NCBI GenBank assembly: GCA_041485905.1
Contig: JBGPKK010000001.1
Coordinates: forward strand, 38,141 to 102,140
Source: Vicinamibacteria bacterium
GTDB lineage: Bacteria > Acidobacteriota > Vicinamibacteria > Vicinamibacterales > CAVVIG01
DNA length: 64,000 nt
Reading direction: 5' to 3'
Part shown: positions 4,690-55,170 of the stretch, one piece after another
Position numbering within the stretch: position 1 is the stretch's first letter
How the letters are laid out: every line of letters begins with the position of its first letter
Program-made: the position numbers and the translations under genes
The notes under the pieces: model-generated
Databases searched by the model: none
Seen by the model: only the letters and a program-made list of their open reading frames with translations
Told to the model about the DNA's origin: nothing

Positions 4690-5375
4690 CGTACCAGATC
4701 CACCGGCGGCGGGACAAAGGCGTCATGAGCAGACTCCCACGGCAGCGCCGCTTCCGCTGGCGCGTGCATACCGTCAGCCCGGTTCGGAAGCTCGCTCGCG
4801 CGCGAGCGGTCGCCGTGCAGGAAGCGATCGAGCATCGCGTATCCATGCTCGCTGGCGGCCGACTCCGGATGGAACTGGACACCGATAACGGGATGCGTGC
4901 GGTGTTCGACCGCCATAATCTCGCCGTCGTCTTTGGCGGAAGCGATTACGCGCAGCGATTCCGGCAGTGAGGCACGCGCGATCACGAGCGAGTGGTAACG
5001 CGCGACCCGCAGCGGCGACGGCAGCCCGGCAAAGATGCTCGAACCGTCATGGACGACAGGCGAGGTTCTACCGTGCAACGGGCGGCCGGCCCGCACGATA
5101 TCGGCGCCGTACGCGGCGCCGATGCACTGGTGGCCGAGGCACACGCCGAGAACAGGTATCGTCGCGCCGAAGCGCAGGACGACATCGGTCGAGATCCCGG
5201 CTTCGAGCGGCGAACAGGGGCCGGGCGACAGAATGATGTGGCTCGGCGAGAGCGTCTCGATCCCCTCCAGCGTCACCTCGTCGTTCCGGCGCACGACGGC
5301 CTCACCGCCCAGTTCGCGCACGTATCGCGCCAGGTTGTGGACGAAAGAATCGTAGTTGTCGATGAGAAGGATCAT
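4686..5375 (-). CDS. pabA: aminodeoxychorismate synthase, glutamine amidotransferase component
   Basis: Start at MILLIDNYDSFVHNL (Met139 of ORF 4686..5789). GVCLGHQ catalytic Cys and FHPES. ATGA overlap with the pabB stop. Confidence 0.9.
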   Translation of the reverse strand: MILLIDNYDSFVHNLARYVRELGGEAVVRRNDEVTLEGIETLSPSHIILSPGPCSPLEAGISTDVVLRFGATIPVLGVCLGHQCIGAAYGADIVRAGRPLHGRTSPVVHDGSSIFAGLPSPLRVARYHSLVIARASLPESLRVIASAKDDGEIMAVEHRTHPVIGVQFHPESAASEHGYAMLDRFLHGDRSRASELPNRADGMHAPAEAALPWESAHDAFVPPPVDLVR

Positions 5376-6931
5376 GCGGGCACCGCGAGGACGTCGATCA
5401 TACCGCGCGCCTTGTCGAGTGTCTCGCGGTACTCCTGTTCGGGGTCCGAGTCGGCCACGATCCCGCCGCCGGCGCTGAAGTACACCCGGCCGCCGCGTGC
5501 GACGGCGGTGCGGATGGCGATGCTGCTGTCGAGCGGCCCGGTGACGCTCCAGTATCCGATGGCGCCGCAGTACACGCCCCGCGCCGATGGCTCCAGCTCG
5601 GCGATGATCTCCATCGCGCGCACTTTCGGGGCGCCGGTAATGGAGCCACCGGGAAACGCCGCACGCAGCAGATCGGCCCCGTCCGCGCCGGGCGAAAGCT
5701 CCCCGACCACGGTCGAGACCAGGTGGTGGACGGTGGCGTAGCGCTCGAGCGCGAACAGCTCGGGCACGCGGACGGTGCCGGGAGCGCACACGCGGGATAA
5801 GTCGTTTCGCATCAGGTCGACGATCATCAGGTTCTCGGCGCGATCCTTCGCGCTCTCGGTAAGCACCACGCCGAGCGCCGCGTCATGCTCGGGTCCCACG
5901 CCGCGTGGACGGGTCCCCTTGACCGGGCGCGTCTCGACGTGCCCGCCGACGTCCACTTGCAGGAAGCGCTCGGGCGACGCGCTGAGCACGACCGCGTCCG
6001 GAAAATCCAGATAGGCGGCGAAGGGAGCAGGGTTCCGCGTGCGCAGCCGCCGATAGAGCGCCCACGGCGGCTCCTCGAGCGGCGCGTCAAAGCGCTGAGA
6101 CAGGTTGGCCTGAAAAATGTCGCCGGCGAAGATGTATTCACGCACGCGGGCGACCGCATCGAGGTAACCCCTGTGCGTGAACGACGATCGAATCGCAAGG
6201 TGCGGGTCCCACCATCCACCCTCGACCGGATAGGCTGGCGCCGGGGCGTCCCGTGCAGTCGTCAGTCGACGGTCGTCAGTCGACAGTCGATCGACGACCG
6301 ACGACTGTCGACTGTCGACTGTCGACTGTAACCGCGCCCGCACGTCGGCCGCGCGTCGAGCGGCGCGGCGAGCGCGGGCCGCTGGTGATGTTTCCGGTAG
6401 GCCGGTGGAAATCAACCATGCACGGGATGCGTCGTGATCCCATGCCAGCACCCAGTCGTACACGCCGAAGACGAGGTCGGGCAGCACGAGATCATCGTGG
6501 CGTGGCGCCGGAAGGCGCTCGAGCGCGCGGCCCCAGTCATATGCCACGTAGCCGGCGGCGCCTCCCTGAAAGGGCGGCAGCCCAGGCACCGGATCAGCAG
6601 CGTGCGGGGCGAGCCATCCACGAACGGCGGCGAGCGCGTCACCTGCGACGAAGGGCGTGGTGATGGCCGGCAGCCCGCTGCGCATCTCGAGGCAATCGGT
6701 CCGCGTCCCTTTGCTGCGCACGACGGCCACCGGATCGGCGACGAGAAAGGAATAGCGGCCAAGACGCGTTCCCGGCGCTGCGCTGTCGAGAAACAGGCGA
6801 TACGGAAGTCCCTCGAGCCGTTCGCAGCAGCTCGAGGGATCGGGCGGTGGAACCAGTTCCTCGACGAGCGGAACGACGTTCAAGATACCCTCAGCGGTAA
6901 GTGTGAGGTCTGAAGTCTCAAGAGTGCGCAC
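5372..6931 (-). CDS. pabB: aminodeoxychorismate synthase component I, with a repeat-encoded in-frame insert
   Basis: ORF track. YIFAGDIFQANLSQRF, PFAAYLDF, GTRPRG and SITGAPKVRAMEIIAELEPSARGVYCGAIGY are chorismate-utilising-enzyme motifs. Residues about 202-225 (QSTVDSRQSSVVDRLSTDDRRLTT) are encoded by the heptamer array at 6256-6328. Confidence 0.9.
   Translation of the reverse strand: MRTLETSDLTLTAEGILNVVPLVEELVPPPDPSSCCERLEGLPYRLFLDSAAPGTRLGRYSFLVADPVAVVRSKGTRTDCLEMRSGLPAITTPFVAGDALAAVRGWLAPHAADPVPGLPPFQGGAAGYVAYDWGRALERLPAPRHDDLVLPDLVFGVYDWVLAWDHDASRAWLISTGLPETSPAARARRAARRAADVRARLQSTVDSRQSSVVDRLSTDDRRLTTARDAPAPAYPVEGGWWDPHLAIRSSFTHRGYLDAVARVREYIFAGDIFQANLSQRFDAPLEEPPWALYRRLRTRNPAPFAAYLDFPDAVVLSASPERFLQVDVGGHVETRPVKGTRPRGVGPEHDAALGVVLTESAKDRAENLMIVDLMRNDLSRVCAPGTVRVPELFALERYATVHHLVSTVVGELSPGADGADLLRAAFPGGSITGAPKVRAMEIIAELEPSARGVYCGAIGYWSVTGPLDSSIAIRTAVARGGRVYFSAGGGIVADSDPEQEYRETLDKARGMIDVLAVPA
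6256..6328. repeat. Palindromic heptamer array (CAGTCGA-type arm followed by TCGACTG-type arm) inside pabB
   Basis: cagtcgt cagtcga cggtcgt cagtcga cagtcga | tcgacga ccgacga ctgtcga ctgtcga ctgtcga ctg. cagtcgacagtcga and tcgactgtcgactg are perfect reverse complements. Confidence 0.9.
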
Positions 6932-32759: not shown

Positions 32760-33413
32760 GTTGAAGAGGAAGTGTACAGCAGACTGCGAGAACAACCGGG
32801 TGTGATACCGGTCAAGTGGTGGGTCAGTTTCGCGTGGCCGGCCGAGGGACCTCGGGCCGCGCCGCCCGAACGTCGCGCGGAAAACGCGTCCTCCCGGCCA
32901 ACGCTGTCGCACCCCGCGTCGCGTCAGCTTCCTCCCACGCCTCGGCCATGAACAGGGACCGACCGTGGTAACACGTCGCATCCGGGCGTCAATCCGGCGC
33001 GACCCGGTCGGGCCGCCTCCCGGACGCGTTTTCCACCGATCGCCCGACGCGCGAGTTCGATGCGTCGCCGCCCGAGGCCCCTCGGCCGGCTGTCCTCACG
33101 AGCCCTGCCGTGGCCTCGGTGATCGCCGACGTGGAGGCGTGCCGCGCACGATCGCATGACAGCGCGGCCGGAGCGTCTCATCGCGGCGGTCACGACGTGC
33201 AATGAACCTGGCCGTGACGTCCGCATCACCTCCACGGCGAACCCGCGCAGGTGCCGGACCGTCGATGAACCCCTTGACCGCCGCGTGAGCGGCCGAGTAC
33301 GACGCGCAGGACGCGCTGTCCGGCACGCCGACCCGGAGGCGATTACCGAGGCCAGGGCGGGGCGTCACAAACGAGACGCGACGCCGAAACTCAAACTGAC
33401 CCAGTACGCGGTT

Positions 33414-34290: not shown

Positions 34291-35916
34291 TTAGACCGTC
34301 CCGATGACCTCCGGTCGCCGGATCCGTTCCATCTCCACCGGATAGTTGTCGAAGGACATCGTGTAGACCTTCTGGAACACCGGACGCAAATACTCCGTGA
34401 TGTGCTCGTCGAACGGGGGCTGAACCAGGAACTGCCGTCCGTTGCTGACCGAGCGGATCTCGCCGTCCTCGACCACGACTTCCCCGCTCTTGATCACGTA
34501 GCGCGGATACTCGAACATCAGGCTCGGATCCGGGTTCGCGTGATACAGCGCCACATCCGCGTCCGCGCCCACACCCAGGTGACCTTTCTGGGTGAGGCCC
34601 AGCGCGCGCGCCGGGCCCGCGGACGTGATGATGGCGATGTCGGACAGCGTGTACTTTCGATCCAGATCCGCCAGAACGATCCGCTTCTGCGCCTCCTCCG
34701 GCAGCCTGTTCACGCACTCGCGCCGGTACTCCACGTCCATCAAAAGACGGATCAGCTCCGGGTATCGCCAGAAACACGCCCCGTTGGGATGATCCGTCGT
34801 CAGGAAGATCCGCCAGGGATCGGTGATGAGGAGCAGCAGTTCCAATCCGACTGCCCACTGGATGGCGTTGACCAGCTTGTGCTCTTTGTACACGTAGGGA
34901 ACGATCCCGCATCCGGTCTCATTCTCCACGTCGAGGTTGCCCCACTTGTGGCCGGTGAGCTGATAGAGGACGTGCTGCCACGGGCCGTCGGCGGTGATCG
35001 TCACGGTGTTGCCGAACAGGATCGCCCCCGCGTCGGTCGTGAAGTTCGTATGCGTGTTGAAGTACTCGGCGACAGTGGCCGCTTCCGAGCGCATCGAGCC
35101 CCAGTCGTCTCCACCGTAGGAGTGGAATTGCAGGTGCGCGAGATGCGCCCGACGCCCCTCCAGGACCTTCATCGTCTCGATCGTCGTCGTGAAGTTGCCC
35201 GGAGCGCCGAGGTTGTTGCAGTGGATGTGGAGCGGGTGCGGCAGACCCAGATCGTCGATGATGGTCGCGAGGTCCGAGATGATCCTGGCCGGCGTCACTT
35301 TGCTGTACCCGTCAATCGATTCGAACAGCTTCTTGGCGTCGTGCCCGTACTTCCAGTTCACGACGCCCCCGGGATTGACTGCCTTGACGCCGTACGCCTT
35401 GGCCGCGCCGATCAGCCACGCCACGACGTGCCTGGCGCGTTCCAGTTCGCCCGCCTCCAGCAGGTCCAGCACGATTTCGTTGTTGGCCATCAACACGAGC
35501 GTGGACTTGTCGACGATGGGCGTGTCGTGCAGCTCTTCGTGCGTGTGTCTCGCAGAGAGCACCGGCATGGCGGCCTCGTTCACCGTCGTCCAGCCCATGC
35601 CCGCGTACAAGTACCCGGTGGCGAAGGTCGTGGGGGTGATGCCGCCGAGACCGGCACGGAACTCGGGCGTGTGCACGAACGGCAGCCCACGCCGCATGTG
35701 CTCGGGCGTCAGGCCGCGCGCGAAATTCAGCGCGGCTCCGGCCACGTGGGTGTGGACGTCGACGCCGCCGGGGAATACGACCAGGCCGGTGGCATCGATC
35801 GAGCGGCCGCCTTCGACCTGAGACACGATGCGGCCGTCGGAGATGCAGACGTCCTTGACGACGCCGTCGATCCCGTTGGCCGGATCGTAAACCTTCCCGC
35901 CTGTTATGCGCAGCAT
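34291..35916 (-). CDS. fwdA: formylmethanofuran dehydrogenase subunit A homologue (amidohydrolase)
   Basis: ORF track. MLRITGGKVYDP...GLVVFPGGVDVHTHVAG (HxH metal site). Confidence 0.9.
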   Translation of the reverse strand: MLRITGGKVYDPANGIDGVVKDVCISDGRIVSQVEGGRSIDATGLVVFPGGVDVHTHVAGAALNFARGLTPEHMRRGLPFVHTPEFRAGLGGITPTTFATGYLYAGMGWTTVNEAAMPVLSARHTHEELHDTPIVDKSTLVLMANNEIVLDLLEAGELERARHVVAWLIGAAKAYGVKAVNPGGVVNWKYGHDAKKLFESIDGYSKVTPARIISDLATIIDDLGLPHPLHIHCNNLGAPGNFTTTIETMKVLEGRRAHLAHLQFHSYGGDDWGSMRSEAATVAEYFNTHTNFTTDAGAILFGNTVTITADGPWQHVLYQLTGHKWGNLDVENETGCGIVPYVYKEHKLVNAIQWAVGLELLLLITDPWRIFLTTDHPNGACFWRYPELIRLLMDVEYRRECVNRLPEEAQKRIVLADLDRKYTLSDIAIITSAGPARALGLTQKGHLGVGADADVALYHANPDPSLMFEYPRYVIKSGEVVVEDGEIRSVSNGRQFLVQPPFDEHITEYLRPVFQKVYTMSFDNYPVEMERIRRPEVIGTV

Positions 35917-36000
35917 TGGGGAAATTGGGAATTAAGAATTAGGAATTCAGAATTCAGAATTCGAGCCACGAATTCCTAATTTCGAATTCTGAATTCATAA
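35917..36000. repeat. A+T-rich palindromic heptamer array filling the whole fwdB-fwdA intergenic space
   Basis: gaattaa gaattag gaattca gaattca gaattcg agcc acgaatt cctaatt tcgaatt ctgaatt cataatt. gaattcagaattcga and tcgaattctgaattc are perfect inverted repeats. Contains several GAATTC cores. Confidence 0.9.
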
Positions 36001-37344
36001 TTACGCGATTGCCGCGCGGACGTGCGTCTCGGGCGACCAGGCAGGCTTCGCGGCCACCGCCTCGCGGATGCGCCGGACGACCTCTTCGTCGGTCGGATAC
36101 GGCGACTTGAGCGCCGGCCGAAGCGGCAGGGGTATTTCGTCCATGCGATACGCAGTCCCCGGCGCGCTGATACCTGTGACCGCCGTGGTGATGTGCACGC
36201 GGGACAGGCGGCTCGTGTGAGTCACCTTGGGATCCAGCACGATCGTGGGAATGCGAGCCAGGTGATCGATGCCCGGCTGCGGCATCGTCGCTCCCGGATC
36301 CGCGCCGAGGATGAGCGCGGCGTCGTTGTCGCCGCGGACGATCAGGTCCACGGTCGAGAACTCCCCCGGATTGAAACGGGGGTAGCCCCGACTCAAGCTC
36401 ACACCGAACGGGTAGCCGGTCGACCAGCGCAGGACCATGTCCGATCCGGTGACGTTGCCGTGCCCTCGCATCGGCATGCACACGAACTTGGTGAACGCGT
36501 TCAGCTCCGCGGCCAGCGAGAGCACGCCCGCCGAGTTCATGTGCTTTCCACGGGTCATCGAGAGCCCCATGCCGAAGAAGATCACGCCGAATTTTGCGCG
36601 CTTCATTCGGTTGACGAGGTCCTGGAGTTGATCGACCGAGAGTCCGGTTTCCGCCACGCTCTCGGCATTGACCCTCTGGTTCTTGACAAGCGCGCGCAAG
36701 GTGGTGAGAACCTCGAAGTCCTTGCCCGGCCGAATCTGCAGGAAGAGGTCCGCAGCCTTCACGCTGGGCGTTTCGCGGATGTCCACCAGGACCATGAAGC
36801 GTCCCTTGCGCCCTTCCGGCACGAACCTGCCCTTCTGGGTCAGCGTGTATTTGGTGAAGTGCCGCGGGTGGCATTCCGCCGGGTTGCCGCCCCAGTAGAT
36901 GATGAAGTCGGCCCGATTCTTCACTTCGCCGAGCGTGCATGTAATCTTGCCACCCAACTGGGCGGCTATCTCAGTGGGGCCGTGTCAAAGCGAGGTGTGG
37001 CTGTCGACCACACCCCCGATCAACTCAGCCAGTGCCACGGCTTCCCGCTGGGCCTCGCACGTGATGTTGCTGAGTCCGTACACCAGTGGCATGTTGGCGG
37101 CATACAGGTAGTCGGCCGCGGCTGCGACGGCCGCGTCGAGAGTGGCCGGCTTCCCGTCGATCAGCGCGTCTGGAAACAGACGCTCCGCCGTGTGGTGTTT
37201 GAACCACGACTCGCCGAGACTGCAGGCGTTCTTGGCCTTGACGATGCGATCGCCTTCGGTGTGCAACTCGATGTCGTCACAGACGCATCCGCAGAACGTG
37301 CACGTGGCGTTGGGCACGACGTTGCTCGCAACGTTGAGGGTCAT
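36001..37344 (-). CDS. fwdB: formylmethanofuran dehydrogenase subunit B with an in-frame TGA (probable selenocysteine) at 36985-36987
   Basis: ORFs 36985..37482 (from MTLNV, Met47) and 36001..36957 are in the same frame, separated only by TGA plus 9 sense codons: ...GGVVDSHTSL-TGA-HGPTEIAAQLGGKITC.... The N-terminus has CTFCGCVCDD...C (Fe-S-like). The TGA is codon 120 and is followed by His. Confidence 0.75.
36953..36978 (-). promoter_or_regulatory. Candidate bacterial SECIS-like hairpin downstream of the fwdB UGA
   Basis: mRNA reads UGA CACGGC CCCACUG AGAUAGCCGCC CAGUUGGG: a 7-bp stem with one bulged U and an 11-nt loop, starting 7 nt after UGA. Folded by eye only. Confidence 0.3.
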
Positions 37345-46218: not shown

Positions 46219-48590
46219 GCTCCCGAATTTTTGGCTCAGGCATCCGGCGGCGGGAAGATCCGCGGCTGATTACCGGGACCGCGTTGTACACCGACGATCT
46301 GACGCTGCCGGCGATGGTCCACGCGGCCATGCTGCGCAGCCCGCACGCCTACGCGCGCATCACGAGGATTGACGTCAGCCGCGCGAAAGCGGCGCCGGGC
46401 GTGCTGGCCGCCTACACGGCCGCGGACATCGACGCGCTGAAGCCGGTGCCGTGCGCGTGGCTGCTGCCGAACGCGAACCTCAAGATCGCCGGCTACCCGT
46501 GCATGGCCAGGGACACCGTCCGCTACGTCGGCGACATCGTGGCGGTCGTCGTCGCCGAGACCGCGTATCAGGCGTACGACGCGCTCGATCTCCTCGAGGT
46601 GGACTACGACGCGTTGCCCGCAGTCACCGATCCAAAGGCAGCGGCCCAGCCCGGCGCGCCGCAGCTGCACGCCGACATACCAAACAACGAGGCGTTTCAC
46701 TGGGTGGTGGCTGGCGGCGATATCGACGCCGCCTTCAAGAACGCTGAAGTCATCGTCAAGGAGCGCATCGTTCAGCAACGGCTCATTCCCAACGCGATGG
46801 AGCCACGGGCCGCGCTCGCGCAGTGGAGCGGCGCGTCGGGAGAGCTGACGCTCTGGAACACGACCCAGAACCCCCACATCCTCCGCTACCTCACCTCGGT
46901 CGTCACCGGCGTGCCGGAAGACAAGCTGCGTGTGGTCGCCCCTGAAGTCGGCGGCGGGTTTGGCAGCAAGATCGCGGCGTATCCGGCGGACTTCATCACC
47001 TGTTTCTGCGCGATGACCTTGAATCGGCCGGTCAAGTGGAACGAAACGCGCAGCGAGAACTATCAGGCGACAACGCACGGCCGCGATCACATCCAGGAGG
47101 TCGAGCTCGCCGCGAAGAAGGACGGGACGATCCTCGGACTGCGCGCCGAGATCTGGGCGGGCATGGGCGCGTATCTGTCGACGGCGGCGCCCGGCATCCC
47201 GACGATTCTGCACGGCCTGATGCTGTCGGGCGTGTACAACCTGCCCGCCGTCAAGGAACACGTCCACGGCGTATATACCAACGCCACGCCGGTCGAGGCG
47301 TATCGCGGCGCCGGACGACCCGAAGCGACGTTCATGATCGAACGCATGATGGACAAGCTGGCGAGCACGATCGGGATGGATCCGGTTGACCTGCGGTTGA
47401 AGAACATGATCCCGCGCTTCGAGAACGGGCACACGGTCATCACCGGGCTCACCTACGACAGCGGCGACTACCCGGCGGGATTGAAGAAGATCCTGGATCA
47501 CGTGAAGTACAAGGAGCTGCGCAAGGAGCAGGCGGACGCGCGCAAGAAGGGACGCTACATCGGCATCGGCGTGGCGTCCTACGTCGAGATCTGCGGACTC
47601 GGGCCGTCACAGGTCGCCGGCGCGATCGGCTTCCAGGGAGGTCTGTGGGAAAGCGCCATCGTGCGCGTCCATCCCACAGGGAAGGTTCACGTCTTCATCG
47701 GCGCGTCGCCGCACGGTCAAGGCGAAGAGACGACGTTCGCCCAGCTCGTCGCCAGCGAGATCGGCGTCGATACCAACGACGTCAAGGTGTTTCACGGCGA
47801 CACCGACGTCACCCCGATGGGATGGGGCACCTACGGCAGCCGGACGACCGCGGTCGGCGGTGCGGCCCTGATCCTCGCGACGCGCAAGGTCAAGGAGAAG
47901 GCCAAGGTCATTGCCGCGCACCTGCTCGAAGCCTCGGTCGAGGACATGGACTACGCCGACGGCAGGTTCTTCGTGAAGGGATCGCCCGACAAGGCGAAGA
48001 CGATTCAGGAGGTCGCGCTGATGGCGCACCTGTCGTGGAACATGCCGAAGGACGTCGAGTCGGGACTCGAGGCGTCGATGTTCTACGACCCGCCCAACTT
48101 TACGTATCCGTTCGGATCGCACGTCGCGGTGGTCGAAGTCGATCCGGAGACGGGACAGATCGATCTCAAGCGGTACGTCGCGCTCGACGACTGCGGCCCG
48201 CAGATCAATCCGGTCATCGTCGAAGGCCAGGTGCACGGCGGCGTCGTGCAGGGTCTGGGTCAGGCGCTCTGGGAAGAAGCGGTGTACGACGAGAACGGGC
48301 AGCTGGTCACGGGGTCGATGCTCGACTACGCCCTGCCCCGCGCCGACACGCTCTGCGACATCGAGGTGATTTCGACGGTCACGCCGTCGCCGCATCATCC
48401 GCTTGGACTCAAAGGCGTTGGCGAAGCCGGCACGATCGCGTCGACCGTGACGATGTACAGCGCCGTGATGGACGGGCTCGCGCCCCTGGGCGTCCAGCCG
48501 CTTCGGATGCCGATGACGGCCGAACGCGTGTGGCGGGCCATTCAAGAGGGCAAAGCGCAAAGGGCAGAGGGCAAAGCGCAGAAGGCATAG
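46215..48590 (+). CDS. coxL: Molybdopterin large subunit, form-II CoxL-like (AYRGAGR active-site loop)
   Basis: Start at MSSRIFGSGIRRRED (Met61 of ORF 46035..48590), ATGA overlap with coxS. EVGGGFGSK; VEAYRGAGRPEA rather than the AYRCSFR of form I. The last about 14 residues are encoded by the heptamer array. Confidence 0.85.
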   Translation: MSSRIFGSGIRRREDPRLITGTALYTDDLTLPAMVHAAMLRSPHAYARITRIDVSRAKAAPGVLAAYTAADIDALKPVPCAWLLPNANLKIAGYPCMARDTVRYVGDIVAVVVAETAYQAYDALDLLEVDYDALPAVTDPKAAAQPGAPQLHADIPNNEAFHWVVAGGDIDAAFKNAEVIVKERIVQQRLIPNAMEPRAALAQWSGASGELTLWNTTQNPHILRYLTSVVTGVPEDKLRVVAPEVGGGFGSKIAAYPADFITCFCAMTLNRPVKWNETRSENYQATTHGRDHIQEVELAAKKDGTILGLRAEIWAGMGAYLSTAAPGIPTILHGLMLSGVYNLPAVKEHVHGVYTNATPVEAYRGAGRPEATFMIERMMDKLASTIGMDPVDLRLKNMIPRFENGHTVITGLTYDSGDYPAGLKKILDHVKYKELRKEQADARKKGRYIGIGVASYVEICGLGPSQVAGAIGFQGGLWESAIVRVHPTGKVHVFIGASPHGQGEETTFAQLVASEIGVDTNDVKVFHGDTDVTPMGWGTYGSRTTAVGGAALILATRKVKEKAKVIAAHLLEASVEDMDYADGRFFVKGSPDKAKTIQEVALMAHLSWNMPKDVESGLEASMFYDPPNFTYPFGSHVAVVEVDPETGQIDLKRYVALDDCGPQINPVIVEGQVHGGVVQGLGQALWEEAVYDENGQLVTGSMLDYALPRADTLCDIEVISTVTPSPHHPLGLKGVGEAGTIASTVTMYSAVMDGLAPLGVQPLRMPMTAERVWRAIQEGKAQRAEGKAQKA

Positions 48591-48650
48591 GGCAAAGCGC
48601 AGAGGGCATAGGGCAAAGGGGTTTTTGCCCTTTGCCTTTTGCCTTTTGCA
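48548..48650. repeat. Heptamer array pair: about 10 x GGGCAAA-type units, then 3-4 x TTGCCCT-type units (hairpin)
   Basis: gggcaaa gcgcaaa gggcaga gggcaaa gcgcaga aggcata gggcaaa gcgcaga gggcata gggcaaa ggggttt ttgccct ttgcctt ttgcctt ttgcact. Confidence 0.9.
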
Positions 48651-51618: not shown

Positions 51619-52773
51619 TTTCTCTTCCACAACATCGTCCACTTCGGCCGGCTCCTGCACGCGCTTGGCCTGGACGTGCATGCCGGACGCATGCTCGATG
51701 TGGCCGGGGCGCTGGAGCACATCGACATCGGACGCCGCTCGGACTTTTGCGTCGCGCTGCAATCTCTTCTCATTCACCGCCCGCAGGATCTGCCGATCTT
51801 TGACGAGGCGTTCCGCGTGTTCTGGAAGCCGCCGCCAGGTGAATGGGCATCGACCGATCTGCGGGCCATGGGTGAACAGCGCCGCTCCGGAGCGCCCCAA
51901 GTCGATGTACCAGCGGCACAACCCGATTCACTGGACGATCCCTCGCTTCCCCTGCTCGCTGAGACCGTCCAGCGCATCGCGCCGAGAGGTTACAGCTCGC
52001 AGGAGGTATCGCGCGTCAAGGACTTCGAGCAGTTCACGGAGGCCGAGCTCGAAGCCGCGAAGGCGATGATCGCAGAGCTGACGTGGGACCTTGGGACGCG
52101 ACAGACTCGCCGCTGGAAGTCCGGCGACGGCAGGGTACTGGATTTCAGGAAGGTCATGCGCCGCAACCTTCGCTACGGCGGCGAACCGCTCGCGCTGCCG
52201 ACACGCGAGCGAGCGTCACGGCGCCGGCCGCTCGTGCTGCTCTGCGACGTCAGCGGATCGATGGAGCGGTACGCGCGCATGCTGCTGCATTTCATGCATA
52301 GTCTGGCCGCCGGCCTCGAACACGTCGAGGCGTTCGTGTTCGCGACGCGGTTGACCCGGATCACACGCGATCTCTCCGCGCGCGGCGGCCGCGAATCGCT
52401 GCCCACGATCCCGCGGCGCGTGCCCGACTGGGCCGGGGGCACGCGCATCGGAGACGCGGTGCGGACGTTCAACGTGCAGTGGGCGCGCCGCGTCATGGGA
52501 CATGGACCAGTCGTGCTGTTGATCTCTGACGGGTGGGATCGCGGGGAACCCGAGGTGCTCGCCCGCGAGATGAGCCGCCTCCAGCGAAGCTGTCATCGTC
52601 TCATCTGGCTCAACCCGCTGCTCGGATCGGCGGACTATCAGCCGCTGACGCGCGGGATGCAGGCGGCGCTACCGTTCGTCGACGATTTCCTGCCGGTGCA
52701 CAATCTGGCCAGCCTGGAAGCGCTTGCGCGGCACCTCAACAAACTGCCGGCGCGCCGCGCGGTCAGGGCATAG
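51613..52773 (+). CDS. coxE: VWA-domain protein (CoxE-like)
   Basis: ORF track (TTG start). LVLLCDVSGSM MIDAS motif and VVLLISDGWD. Confidence 0.85.
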   Translation: MPFLFHNIVHFGRLLHALGLDVHAGRMLDVAGALEHIDIGRRSDFCVALQSLLIHRPQDLPIFDEAFRVFWKPPPGEWASTDLRAMGEQRRSGAPQVDVPAAQPDSLDDPSLPLLAETVQRIAPRGYSSQEVSRVKDFEQFTEAELEAAKAMIAELTWDLGTRQTRRWKSGDGRVLDFRKVMRRNLRYGGEPLALPTRERASRRRPLVLLCDVSGSMERYARMLLHFMHSLAAGLEHVEAFVFATRLTRITRDLSARGGRESLPTIPRRVPDWAGGTRIGDAVRTFNVQWARRVMGHGPVVLLISDGWDRGEPEVLAREMSRLQRSCHRLIWLNPLLGSADYQPLTRGMQAALPFVDDFLPVHNLASLEALARHLNKLPARRAVRA

Positions 52774-52835
52774 GGCATAGGGCAAAGGGCAAAGGGCAGA
52801 GGGCAGAGGGCAAAGGGCAGAGGGCAGAGGGCAAA
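52766..52835. repeat. Heptamer array, 10 x GGGCAxA (left arm of the four-helix-bundle cassette)
   Basis: gggcata gggcata gggcaaa gggcaaa gggcaga gggcaga gggcaaa gggcaga gggcaga gggcaaa. Contains the coxE stop codon. Confidence 0.95.
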
Positions 52836-52839
52836 AGAC

Positions 52840-53217
52840 TCACACTGATGGGGATCCGCGGTACGGTGAGGCACGAGCCGTTCTGATGGCGCTGATGACC
52901 ATCGCTCGAAGTTGGTTCGCTTCGCCGAGTTCCCATTCGGCTTCATCCTTCGTCACGACCGCAATCTTCAGAGCGACGCGAAGCCACCAGATGGTCTCGC
53001 GCGCCTCCTTTCGGGAAATACTCAGCTTTGCAATGAAATCCGGCTTCGACTGGCCTTCTTGCGCTTCTTCTGCGTTGGAGCCGATCGAGGTGCCGCAACG
53101 CATTAGCTGTGACGCCACGTGTCGAGCCGCTGGCCCGCGCGACCAGATCTTCTCCGACAGCTTCAAGATGCAGCAGGCAAATTCGAACGCTCGCTCGCAG
53201 ATGATGGAGTGGGTCAT
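52840..53217 (-). CDS. four-helix-bundle protein (23S rRNA intervening-sequence protein family)
   Basis: Start at MTHSIICERAFEF (Met9 of ORF 52840..53241). SIGSNAEEAQEGQSKPDFIAKLSISRKEARETIWWL matches that family's hallmark as I remember it. Confidence 0.75.
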   Translation of the reverse strand: MTHSIICERAFEFACCILKLSEKIWSRGPAARHVASQLMRCGTSIGSNAEEAQEGQSKPDFIAKLSISRKEARETIWWLRVALKIAVVTKDEAEWELGEANQLRAMVISAIRTARASPYRGSPSV

Positions 53218-53346
53218 GACGCGCTGGAGTTCAAGGTTCACGCCACCGGAAATGTCACGAAAGGCTGGTAAAAACAGATGCCGGCATTGGCGGTTTGAAA
53301 TTCATACATCCCCCCGCGCACCGCGGAGATCTCTTTTTGTGCGATC

Positions 53347-53381
53347 TGCCCTTTGCCCTTTGCCCTTAGCCCTTAGCCCTT
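53347..53381. repeat. Heptamer array, 5 x TGCCCTT/AGCCCTT (right arm, inverted relative to 52766-52835)
   Basis: tgccctt tgccctt tgccctt agccctt agccctt. Contains the coxG stop codon. Confidence 0.95.
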
Positions 53382-53803
53382 TCCTGAAGGCACCCGAAGA
53401 ACCGGTCCATCATCATCTTCGAGACCGTGCCGAGCAGACGCTGACCAACCCGCGCCATGAGACCGCCGACCTGCCCCTGACCTTTTACGTTCACGATCGT
53501 CGTGTCGTTCTGTTCCACGAGCTCGACCGTCGCCTCGCCCTTGACAAAGCCGGCCTTGCCGGTGCCTTCGACAACCAGTCGATAGGAGTGCGGCGGCCGT
53601 TTGTCGAGAATCGCGACCGTCCCCGTGTACTGACCGCTGACCGCCGCGACGGCCAAGGTCAACGACGCTCGATATTGATCCTCGCCAATCGGCTCCAACC
53701 GATCGCAACCCGGCAGACATTCCGCAACGACGATGGGATCGATGAGCAGATTCCAGACCGCGGTGGGAGGGGCGGCGAAGGTGTAAGAAGCGGCAAGATC
53801 CAT
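53366..53803 (-). CDS. coxG: SRPBCC-fold CoxG-like protein
   Basis: ORF track. VWNLLIDPIVVAECLPGCDRLEPIGEDQYRA...VSGQYTGTV...GGLMARVGQRLL fits CoxG. Confidence 0.8.
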   Translation of the reverse strand: MDLAASYTFAAPPTAVWNLLIDPIVVAECLPGCDRLEPIGEDQYRASLTLAVAAVSGQYTGTVAILDKRPPHSYRLVVEGTGKAGFVKGEATVELVEQNDTTIVNVKGQGQVGGLMARVGQRLLGTVSKMMMDRFFGCLQERAKG

Positions 53804-53812
53804 GACGGGGAT

Positions 53813-54610
53813 CTACGGCTTCGTCACGGTGTACTCTGCCGGAATCTTGAATACCTCGTCCGCAATCGGCGCCAGGGAAACTTCGGTGACCTTGCTGGTC
53901 AGCTTCATCGGCAGCTTGAACGCGTCAACGAGCGGCGAACCCCCTTCGAGGGAGACCTCGAAGTCGGTGAGGCACGTGATGCCTTCAGCGCGGGCGAATA
54001 GCTGGTTCAGATCGACGCTGCCCGAAGACTGCGCCGTGCCGGGAAGGTTCGCCGCGATGGCGCGCTTCTGAAACGCGACATACTCCGCAGCACCAGGCGC
54101 GTTGTTCGACACCCACACGACGCCGTTGGACGTCAGCCGGGCGTCCTTGAACGTTTCGGCTGCTTCCTTGGACATCTGCCGCTGTGCCATGTCGACCGAC
54201 ATCGATACTTTGAACTCGTCGCATCGCTGGCCGAAGAATGTCTGCGACCGTCCCGTTGGCTCGAGAGTGAGGTCGACGTTCGGCATCGTTTCCCGCGCCT
54301 CAGCGGTCGGCGCATCGGACACCTGCGCGATTTTCTGCGGGCCGATCAGATGGATCACCCGACCCGTCGTCAGGTCGACAATGGTCGAAATCGTCGCGCC
54401 CTGGGACTCGGAATCCGTACGCGACTTCGTACCCTTGATGCGCGTGATCGCACGCGCTGTGCTGATGTTCGGCGCGCCTTCCATCGTGAGGGTCGTTGTC
54501 ATGGTAATCGTGACGTCGGCGCGAAGCACGGTCGAGCACATCGCGATCAGGGCAAGCGCTATCCATGACGACTGTCGACTGACGACGGTCGACTGTCGAC
54601 TGCTGATCAT
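53813..54610 (-). CDS. secreted protein or lipoprotein, unknown function
   Basis: ORF track. N-terminus MISSRQSTVVSRQSSWIALALIAMCSTVLRA. The charged n-region is encoded by the heptamer half-array. Confidence 0.65.
   Translation of the reverse strand: MISSRQSTVVSRQSSWIALALIAMCSTVLRADVTITMTTTLTMEGAPNISTARAITRIKGTKSRTDSESQGATISTIVDLTTGRVIHLIGPQKIAQVSDAPTAEARETMPNVDLTLEPTGRSQTFFGQRCDEFKVSMSVDMAQRQMSKEAAETFKDARLTSNGVVWVSNNAPGAAEYVAFQKRAIAANLPGTAQSSGSVDLNQLFARAEGITCLTDFEVSLEGGSPLVDAFKLPMKLTSKVTEVSLAPIADEVFKIPAEYTVTKP
54567..54602. repeat. Heptamer half-array (cgactgt cgactga cgacggt cgactgt cgactgc), same flavour as the pabB insert
   Basis: Read directly. Lies at the junction of the CHRD gene stop and the downstream gene start. 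Confidence 0.9.
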
Positions 54611-55047: not shown

Positions 55048-55081
55048 CGTGCCTCCGCTTGGATTGTACAGGGGTCTGGCG

Positions 55082-55170
55082 GGGCAGGTGGGTCAGGTGC
55101 GCCGGGTAGGTAACCCACCCGACCTACACGACCTACCCCGACTCACCCGACCTACCTGCCCTACCCGACC
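55082..55170. repeat. G+C-rich inverted repeat array (GTAGGTC/GACCTAC flavour) just downstream of the amidase stop
   Basis: gggcaggtgggtcaggtgcgccgggtaggtaa / cccacccgacctacacgacctaccccgactcacccgacctacctgccc. The outer 8 nt gggcaggt and acctgccc are perfect complements. Confidence 0.8.

Follow-up and report, generated by a model that had tools for sequence, protein, structure and literature searches.

Why should a genome of high G+C content carry, between two genes of one operon, a palindrome made of A+T-rich heptamers? The question is raised by a stretch of 64,000 nucleotides from a Vicinamibacteria bacterium (NCBI GenBank assembly GCA_041485905.1, contig JBGPKK010000001.1, positions 38,141 to 102,140 of the forward strand; hereafter the window), in which fwdB and fwdA, the genes for subunits B and A of a formylmethanofuran dehydrogenase, are separated by a spacer of 84 nt. 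An earlier note on this DNA, made from the sequence alone, had proposed that a stable hairpin in the spacer decouples or tunes the expression of the two subunits, or acts as a processing site. The answer given here, which we hold to be somewhat likelier right than wrong, is that the spacer belongs, without a gene of its own, to a widespread class of inverted heptamer repeats, palindromic long simple sequence repeats akin to the short tandemly repeated repetitive (STRR) sequences of cyanobacteria, and that any effect on the ratio of the two subunits would be a by-product. Such arrays are common in the window genome and in related Acidobacteriota and Planctomycetota, where they are found chiefly at junctions of genes within an operon. 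Their units, copy numbers and positions change rapidly, with arms that stay complementary, and longer copies of the same build carry a gene for an Avd-like four-helix-bundle protein between the arms.

The coordinates and the repetitive nature of the spacer were confirmed. Tandem Repeats Finder reports an array of period 7 with 10.7 copies at 35929-36002, and the G+C content of the spacer is 33%, compared with 62-71% in the flanking 200-nt windows and about 65% in the genome. The earlier description of the spacer as consisting only of GAATTxx units and their inverted counterparts does not hold throughout: there are also a 4-nt lead, a 5-nt G+C-rich loop and a degenerate 12-nt pyrimidine-rich tail, which in mRNA sense reads CCAATTT CCCCA and closes the series of units listed in Table 1. 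The sequence GAATTCNGAATTC, with at most one mismatch allowed, occurs four times in the window against an expectation of 0.09, and all four occurrences fall within the spacer element. For a 106-nt stretch taken as RNA, the predicted folding energy is -28.6 kcal/mol (z = -4.46), a stability that no sequence among 200 dinucleotide shuffles attained, so the folding check bore out the stable hairpin. In the best fold, the first three heptamers of the 3' arm pair with the 5' arm to give 8 + 13 + 3 bp, one whole unit (7 nt) is bulged, and the last 22 nt are single-stranded together with the AUG. Alternative registers exist: when the last three heptamers of the 3' arm are set against the 5' arm, 17 of 21 positions pair, a count taken from the letters themselves. 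Without its flanks, the 84-nt spacer folds almost equally well on either strand (-23.7 kcal/mol in sense, -23.5 kcal/mol in antisense). In Rfam, searched at a permissive threshold, the best match was mir-1006 with 28.2 bits against a gathering score of 64, and the other matches were sub-threshold microRNA precursors; a known Rfam family was thus rejected, as these matches reflect a generic hairpin.

Heptamer arrays are not confined to this spacer. At least five further arrays of period 7 (to 9) were detected in the window by Tandem Repeats Finder, two of them inside open reading frames (ORFs); the GAATTnn unit is found at one place only, and the other arrays are built from CAGTCGA, AGGGCAn and GGTAGGT units, among others (Table 1). 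For comparison, 80 loci encoding FwdA relatives were assembled from species-representative genomes of Vicinamibacterales, other Acidobacteriota and many Planctomycetota. The window and these loci together amount to 1.26 Mb, in which 50 tandem arrays of at least 3.5 copies have period 7, compared with 16 of period 6, 15 of period 8, five of period 9 and eight of period 3. A large share of these arrays (dozens) are palindromic, with 4-100 nt of loop between an arm and its inverted counterpart, and the unit differs from one array to the next. The GAATT type itself extends well beyond these loci: arrays of four GAATTNN units occur in at least 120 metagenome contigs of 29-69% G+C, and no fwd genes were found among the matches listed, for which reason a fwd-specific association of GAATT arrays was rejected. 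Near copies of the palindromic GAATT form with a G+C-rich centre are present in high-G+C soil contigs (L082, L090, L097, L100 and L167). Because arrays of the same build also occur in finished plasmids and long-read genomes, an assembly artefact was rejected as well.

At orthologous fwdB-fwdA junctions, the spacer has a median length of 52 nt (51 junctions), and many of these spacers carry GGAGA a few bases upstream of the ATG. In the window, this short spacer is replaced by a stable hairpin placed exactly between stop and start, and to that extent the earlier interpretation stands. The note was also correct that no Shine-Dalgarno (SD) sequence precedes fwdA; an SD-like motif is likewise missing before 26 of the 51 orthologous fwdA starts, however, so its absence is unremarkable in these phyla. 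Strongly structured inserts, with long spacers and z below -4, are found at 11 of the 51 junctions in two phyla, and several of them are repeat palindromes built from unrelated units (Table 1). Structured inserts are no rarer at the fwdA-fwdC junction (17 of 75).

The history of the array can be followed among the closer relatives. In locus L205, whose FwdA is 88% identical, with a four-fold third-position identity of 0.65 against 0.39 by chance, a homologous 104-nt GAATT-type palindromic array occupies the same fwdB-fwdA junction. The dominant unit pair is GAATTAG/CTAATTC in L205 and GAATTCA/TGAATTC in the window, and comparison of the two sequences indicates that the unit has changed on both arms with arm complementarity kept. 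The closest relative, L001, is an Acidobacteria metagenome-assembled genome with FwdA about 92-93% identical and a four-fold site identity of 0.81, and its long GAATT-type array lies at the fwdA-fwdC junction, where the fwdA frame ends at a TAG inside the array. At the fwdB-fwdA junction of L001 (9817-10000), a 184-nt G+C-rich nested palindrome (-91.6 kcal/mol) is flanked by A+T-rich array-like remnants, as if a second hairpin element had been inserted into a first. The centre GGAATTCG-TG..-ATTC is common to the arrays of the window, L205, L001 and L018. More distantly, loci L206-L209 (FwdA 84%) have at fwdB-fwdA a hairpin that is not built from repeats, and their heptamer array, of AAGTTCA units, is at fwdA-fwdC; these four share identical FwdA and identical spacers, an apparent fwdA-fwdC gap of 129 nt in L208 being due to a different gene call. 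Exact-protein look-ups returned no record identical to the window FwdA, which precludes an identical-strain comparison of array copy number.

Every clade member with FwdA at least 84% identical has a hairpin-forming fwdB-fwdA spacer of 84-184 nt without an SD sequence, and these spacers differ in sequence. By this comparison, the array is old enough to span considerable synonymous divergence, yet mobile or replaceable on the same time scale. Two other descriptions were considered. The spacer might be taken for a cluster of EcoRI sites, but the GGAATTA/CTAATTC units of relatives lack the site, and what is conserved is thus something other than the recognition sequence. As for a miniature inverted-repeat transposable element, no direct repeat is evident at the borders (TAA/TTAT... 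and ...CCCCA/ATG), and the alignable arrays in other genomes differ in unit count.

A further property of the class emerged from the AGGGCAn arrays of the window. Inside this inverted pair lies a 125-codon ORF (52840-53217, minus strand) whose product matches TIGR02436, 'four helix bundle protein' (E 2e-22), and PF05635, '23S rRNA-intervening sequence protein' (E 1e-18). The whole cassette (52765-53382) is inserted between a coxE-like VWA gene and coxG, and in the RNA fold the two arrays pair with each other, so that the ORF lies within an outer stem. Homologues of the protein at 65-94% identity number in the hundreds in soil metagenomes; four of the longer contigs were fetched, in three of which inverted heptamer arrays bracket the gene among differing neighbours, and in the fourth of which one arm only is present. 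A profile of the homologues, run against the 16,380 ORFs of all loci, recovered four more copies, on contigs chosen for no other reason than a GAATTnn array. All four lie between two inverted GAATT-type arrays, for example between the genes for carbamate kinase and ornithine carbamoyltransferase. A tblastn search of the 80 fwd loci with the window protein returned no further copies; thus, the arrays there are all gene-less.

The pairing of array and gene recurs in finished sequences. By tblastn the gene was found in 25 records, 21 of them cyanobacterial, and ten of these, finished plasmids from Nostoc, Anabaena, Dolichospermum, Planktothrix, Bernardetia and Treponema, were fetched. Inverted tandem arrays bracket the annotated four-helix-bundle gene in nine of the ten, with inverted-flank scores of 45-69. 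As a control, a gap the size of the gene was placed at random 1,199 times; these scores had a median of 18, reached 29 at the 99th percentile and never exceeded 46, and they came nowhere near most of the scores of the bracketed genes. The bracketed cases (L201-L203, L140, L152, L156, L186 and, for the plasmids, nine of L210-L219) have short tandem arrays, mostly of heptamers, and belong to Acidobacteriota, Cyanobacteriota, Bacteroidota and Spirochaetota and, with weak bracketing, to Chloroflexota; AATTC-type units occur in three of the plasmid examples (L210, L213 and L219). Cyanobacteria are the classical hosts of heptamer STRR repeats. The plasmid cassettes sit in cas2-cas1 and helicase-methylase operons and next to a truncated cytosine methyltransferase gene. 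In the plasmids of Nostoc sp. TCL26-01 (L211) and Anabaena cylindrica (L212), the cassette gene lies between cas2 and cas1 on the opposite strand. In plasmid pNsp_c of Nostoc sp. ATCC 53789 (L219), the cassette at 455-1351 has AATTCGC/GCGAATT arms and follows a 77-residue 'DNA cytosine methyltransferase' fragment, ahead of a short hypothetical ORF; it may split a gene. A limited search of the literature found no account of inverted heptamer arrays as regular flanks of four-helix-bundle genes, and novelty is to that extent unproven.

Table 1. Features of the window discussed in the text, followed by repeat palindromes at the same junction in other loci (units in mRNA sense for the spacer).
Feature	Coordinates	Strand	Remarks
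fwdA, formylmethanofuran dehydrogenase subunit A	34291-35916	-	TIGR03121, E 1e-205; ATG 35914-35916
Spacer, degenerate pyrimidine-rich 12-nt tail CCAATTTCCCCA	35917-35928	-	unpaired in best fold; no SD motif
Spacer, 3' arm, five heptamers: CGAATTC TGAATTC TGAATTC CTAATTC TTAATTC	35929-35963	-	
Spacer, G+C-rich 5-nt loop TGGCT	35964-35968	-	
Spacer, 5' arm, four heptamers: GAATTCA GAATTCG AAATTAG GAATTCG	35969-35996	-	
Spacer, 4-nt lead TTAT	35997-36000	-	with the fwdB TAA spells a degenerate first unit, TAATTAT
fwdB, formylmethanofuran dehydrogenase subunit B	36001-37344	-	in-frame TGA 36985-36987; TAA 36001-36003 abuts the array
CAGTCGA units, then TGTCGAC units, palindromic	6256-6329		in frame inside anthranilate-synthase-component-I-like ORF 5372-6931 (-)
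About 10 units AGGGCAA/AGCGCAG, loop GGGGTTTT, four units TTTTGCC	48545-48649	+	gene-less
AGGGCAn x10 and inverted partner TGCCCTT x5	52765-52833 and 53347-53382	-	enclose the four-helix-bundle gene
CGACTGT units, single orientation	54566-54602		first codons of ORF 53813-54610 (-)
GGTAGGT-type units, then ACCTACC-type units	55072-55170		spacer between amidase gene and CHRD-domain gene, both (-)
GCACGAAG/CTTCGTGC palindrome			fwdB-fwdA junction of L041 and L053
CACAGAG/CTCTGTG palindrome			fwdB-fwdA junction of L058
GCAGGAA/TTCCTGC palindrome			fwdB-fwdA junction of L069
CTTAATC/GATTAAG palindrome			fwdB-fwdA junction of a Kuenenia locus

The genes on either side of the spacer were correctly named in the earlier note, as the TIGR03121 and TIGR03129 matches show. 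Orthologues align from residue 1 of FwdA, and its ATG is thus the true start. The product of 36001-36957 matches TIGR03129 (E 1e-107) only from profile position 125, and the fwdB reading frame continues in the same frame upstream through the TGA at 36985-36987. Because the subunit B model matches only from that position, fwdB is best read as a single predicted selenoprotein ORF of about 36001-37344. The in-frame TGA falls within the motif DSHTSL-U-HGPTEIA, which we take to be the Cys/Sec position of formate-dehydrogenase-type molybdopterin enzymes, and a minus-strand hairpin (GCCGCCC-AGUU-GGGUGGC, 36949-36966) about 20 nt downstream of the TGA could be a selenocysteine insertion element. Downstream of fwdA lie a GXGXG (subunit C) gene and a formyltransferase gene; in the stretch of about 650 nt (32760-33413) that separates the fwdC stop from the likely formyltransferase start, no convincing ORF was identified. 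The general statement that genes of this island are joined by 4-nt overlaps breaks down inside the fwd cluster, where fwdA and fwdC are 61 nt apart and some 228 nt separate fwdD from the fwdB start.

Some of the other arrays of the window impinge on coding sequence. The array at 6256-6329 lies between the N-terminal and chorismate-binding domains of its ORF, leaving the frame open and encoding ..LQSTVDSRQSSVVDRLSTDDRRLTT.., and that at 54566-54602 encodes MISSRQSTVVSRQSS ahead of a signal-peptide-like stretch. The array at 48545-48649 separates a molybdopterin dehydrogenase large-subunit gene from the gene of its flavin adenine dinucleotide-binding subunit, and the ORF upstream runs about 45 nt into it, to end at a TAG supplied by the array. 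A tandem repeat of another kind occupies positions 1-352 of the window (period 159 nt, about two copies, 82-90% identical), probably within a coding region.

How, then, is the spacer to be read? The main point in favour of a hairpin dedicated to the fwd operon is that the close relatives (FwdA at least 84% identical) all keep a long, structured, SD-less spacer at this junction. Selection would here maintain a structured spacer that sets the B:A ratio through mRNA processing, differential decay or controlled re-initiation, and the heptamers would be the current stem material. The 11 strongly structured junctions in two phyla point in the same direction, and the in-frame UGA (selenocysteine) codon of fwdB might mean that coupling to fwdA needs special handling. 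Nevertheless, an operon-specific role of the kind suggested in the earlier note strikes us as distinctly unlikely, given that the fwdA-fwdC junction is structured equally often, that most orthologues cope with short spacers, that in the window members of this class are also present in unrelated operons and even within coding regions, and that in the closest relative the array has moved to another junction. The folds of the two strands are, moreover, symmetric. The comparison of the two strands was aimed at G-U pairs, which would favour the transcribed strand, and across 22 junction elements the fold energies revealed no bias; a G-U signature that would betray selection on the transcribed-strand RNA is thus absent, and an RNA role is neither supported nor excluded by the test. 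The order of the arms, with the purine-rich one first, was considered as a strand signal and dropped, since a palindrome is identical on both strands.

That same symmetry, together with units that differ between arrays and the polymerase slippage already invoked for the excess of heptamers in bacteria (PMC4692102, PMC4679880), would suit a plain simple sequence repeat, generated in place by slippage and a strand switch, unrelated to the four-helix-bundle cassettes or to intervening sequences (IVS) and with no consequence at the RNA level. We regard this explanation as unlikely, though one to be taken seriously. GAATT-type arrays of different genomes and junctions can be aligned and have a common G+C-rich centre; GAATT-type units flank four-helix-bundle genes both on plasmids of Nostoc and Dolichospermum and on metagenome contigs; and inverted pairs of arms are met much too often to have arisen each time by separate chance. 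Whatever its origin, a transcribed stem of 24 bp is also likely to form. Signals at other levels fare worse. An A+T-rich island in a G+C-rich genome, with a hairpin followed by a U-containing tail, might be an intrinsic terminator or attenuator after fwdB, or might house an internal promoter for fwdA; this is very improbable, as a consensus scan of 35000-37000 found no promoter-like site and no terminator at the element, the stem is A/U-rich, the tail CUAAUUCUUAAUUCCC has no U run such as an intrinsic terminator requires, and efficient termination would cost fwdA its transcription. Hardest of all to credit is an array of protein-binding sites on the DNA, for a regulator or an A+T-seeking nucleoid protein. 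The A+T content does stand out against the genome, and some regulators are reported to bind heptameric direct repeats; among relatives, however, it is the complementarity of the arms that is conserved at the fwdB-fwdA junction and not the unit sequence, and no regulator gene is associated with the arrays.

If the spacer is instead a gene-less repeat of the inverted heptamer class, as we favour, a coherent course of events can be outlined. Slipped-strand mispairing, together with hairpin-templated repair, would make arrays longer, shorter and more uniform. A stem-loop of about 24 bp in the fwd transcript would follow directly on the fwdB UAA, with the fwdA AUG placed in an unstructured, pyrimidine-rich leader lacking an SD sequence. 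Such a stem-loop would break the stop-start coupling of fwdB and fwdA, so that fwdA would have to initiate independently. By analogy with the Coxiella IVS and the Haemophilus hmw hairpin, the stem would be a likely substrate for RNase III, or else a block to 3' exonucleases; because RNase III cuts both of those structures, a processing or uncoupling effect of the spacer on the transcript is plausible. Any influence on the B:A subunit ratio would then be a tolerated by-product of a self-maintaining repeat, rather than a device evolved for the fwd operon.

Several considerations weigh against this reading, to which the absence of a strand bias among the 22 junction elements also belongs. Arrays or other hairpins persist at the fwdB-fwdA junction across a synonymous divergence (Ks) of about 0.6-0.9, which could reflect selection for a structured spacer. 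The source genome is represented by 64 kb, so that genome-wide abundance is an extrapolation. We infer the folding of the spacer, its cleavage and its effect on translation alike, and an A/U-rich stem with a 7-nt bulge may be a poor substrate for RNase III and easily melted by ribosomes. Finally, the proposed link between gene-less and gene-bearing arrays draws on shared architecture, unit types and co-occurrence.

For the fwd operon itself, the element carries little weight on present evidence: fwdA would here be translated without coupling to fwdB and without an SD sequence, and the junctions of the operon tolerate rapidly changing hairpin inserts. For the window genome the spacer is ordinary, a heptanucleotide repeat hairpin of a known kind, and the wider interest lies in the pairing with the four-helix-bundle gene. 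A bolder proposal, possible but in our estimation rather doubtful, is that there is a cross-phylum IVS-like family whose full-length form has the Avd-like gene between its inverted arrays, and whose form without the gene is the palindromic heptamer array, with this spacer and probably many cyanobacterial STRRs as examples. Its members would settle in operon spacers (fwd, cox, cas2-cas1, helicase-methylase, arcC-argF) and in 23S rRNA, would be tolerated through RNase III processing, and would be served by a four-helix-bundle protein that acts on the stem, either by binding it or by helping it to expand or spread. To our knowledge, the over-representation of heptamers in bacteria has been recognised for decades without an explanation, and we know of no function for PF05635/TIGR02436 proteins outside diversity-generating retroelements. 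If true, the proposal would give this orphan protein family a function and would explain the bacterial excess of 7-nt repeats; should the pairing of array and gene hold in a full census, the two puzzles would be linked and open to test through binding, RNase III processing and repeat dynamics.

Among known systems, the REP/BIME and REPIN elements of enterobacteria and pseudomonads are also short extragenic palindromes placed between genes of operons, where they form mRNA structures that can protect the segment upstream of them. REPs, however, have a conserved consensus of 20-40 nt, hundreds of copies and a dependence on a RAYT transposase, whereas the arrays of the window share no consensus and the spacer is built from tandem heptamers. 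Closer are the heptanucleotide repeats. Their over-representation in bacteria has been put down to polymerase slippage, and examples include GGGAATC arrays in Xanthomonas (inverted pairs among them), GGGGATT in Nostoc, with one array between pecE and pecF, and TAACTGA in Beggiatoaceae (PMC4692102, PMC4679880). Like the STRRs, the spacer consists of at least three head-to-tail 7-nt units and belongs to a genome with several dispersed arrays; like the Xanthomonas, Nostoc and Beggiatoaceae repeats, the window arrays are mostly intergenic, occur at many loci, vary between close relatives and in some cases lie inside operons. They differ in that STRR1-3, GGGAATC and TAACTGA each supply one dominant unit per genome, whereas every array in the 64 kb covered here has its own; in that the palindromic arrangement is the rule here and the exception there; and in their host, a member of the Acidobacteriota.

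In its position, the spacer resembles the 5' untranslated region of Haemophilus hmw1A, in which a transcribed 7-nt array of variable copy number is built into a long RNA hairpin that closely precedes a start codon. In Haemophilus influenzae, the transcribed (ATCTTTC)n array is one arm of the leader hairpin, which is processed by RNase III, and changes in hmw repeat number require both the hairpin and RNase III (PMC12721329). The second arm of that hairpin is a G-rich region and not an inverted array, the setting is a leader rather than an intercistronic spacer, and cleavage and its effect on expression are experimental findings there, whereas our element is known from its sequence. The 23S IVS of Coxiella and Leptospira offer the other half of the likeness, with terminal inverted repeats, a stem of more than 20 bp and heptameric repeats of variable copy number at the stem (PMC4990558). 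In Coxiella, a 28-bp inverted-repeat stem surrounds an S23p ORF of the PF05635 family, the point at which RNase III cuts is marked by two or three heptameric repeats in tandem, and the enzyme excises the element in vitro (PMC4990558); cleavage of the spacer would be plausible by this analogy. Unlike the long 23S IVS, the spacer has a loop of 5 nt and no ORF, and lies in an mRNA rather than in helix 25 or 45 of 23S rRNA, although its predicted 8 + 13 + 3 bp agree with the IVS stem of about 20-28 bp or more. PF05635 proteins are in turn related to Avd, the accessory protein of diversity-generating retroelements (PMC10053308), and it is the cassette at 52765-53382 of the window, with a PF05635 protein inside, that reproduces the stem-plus-ORF build of the 23S IVS.

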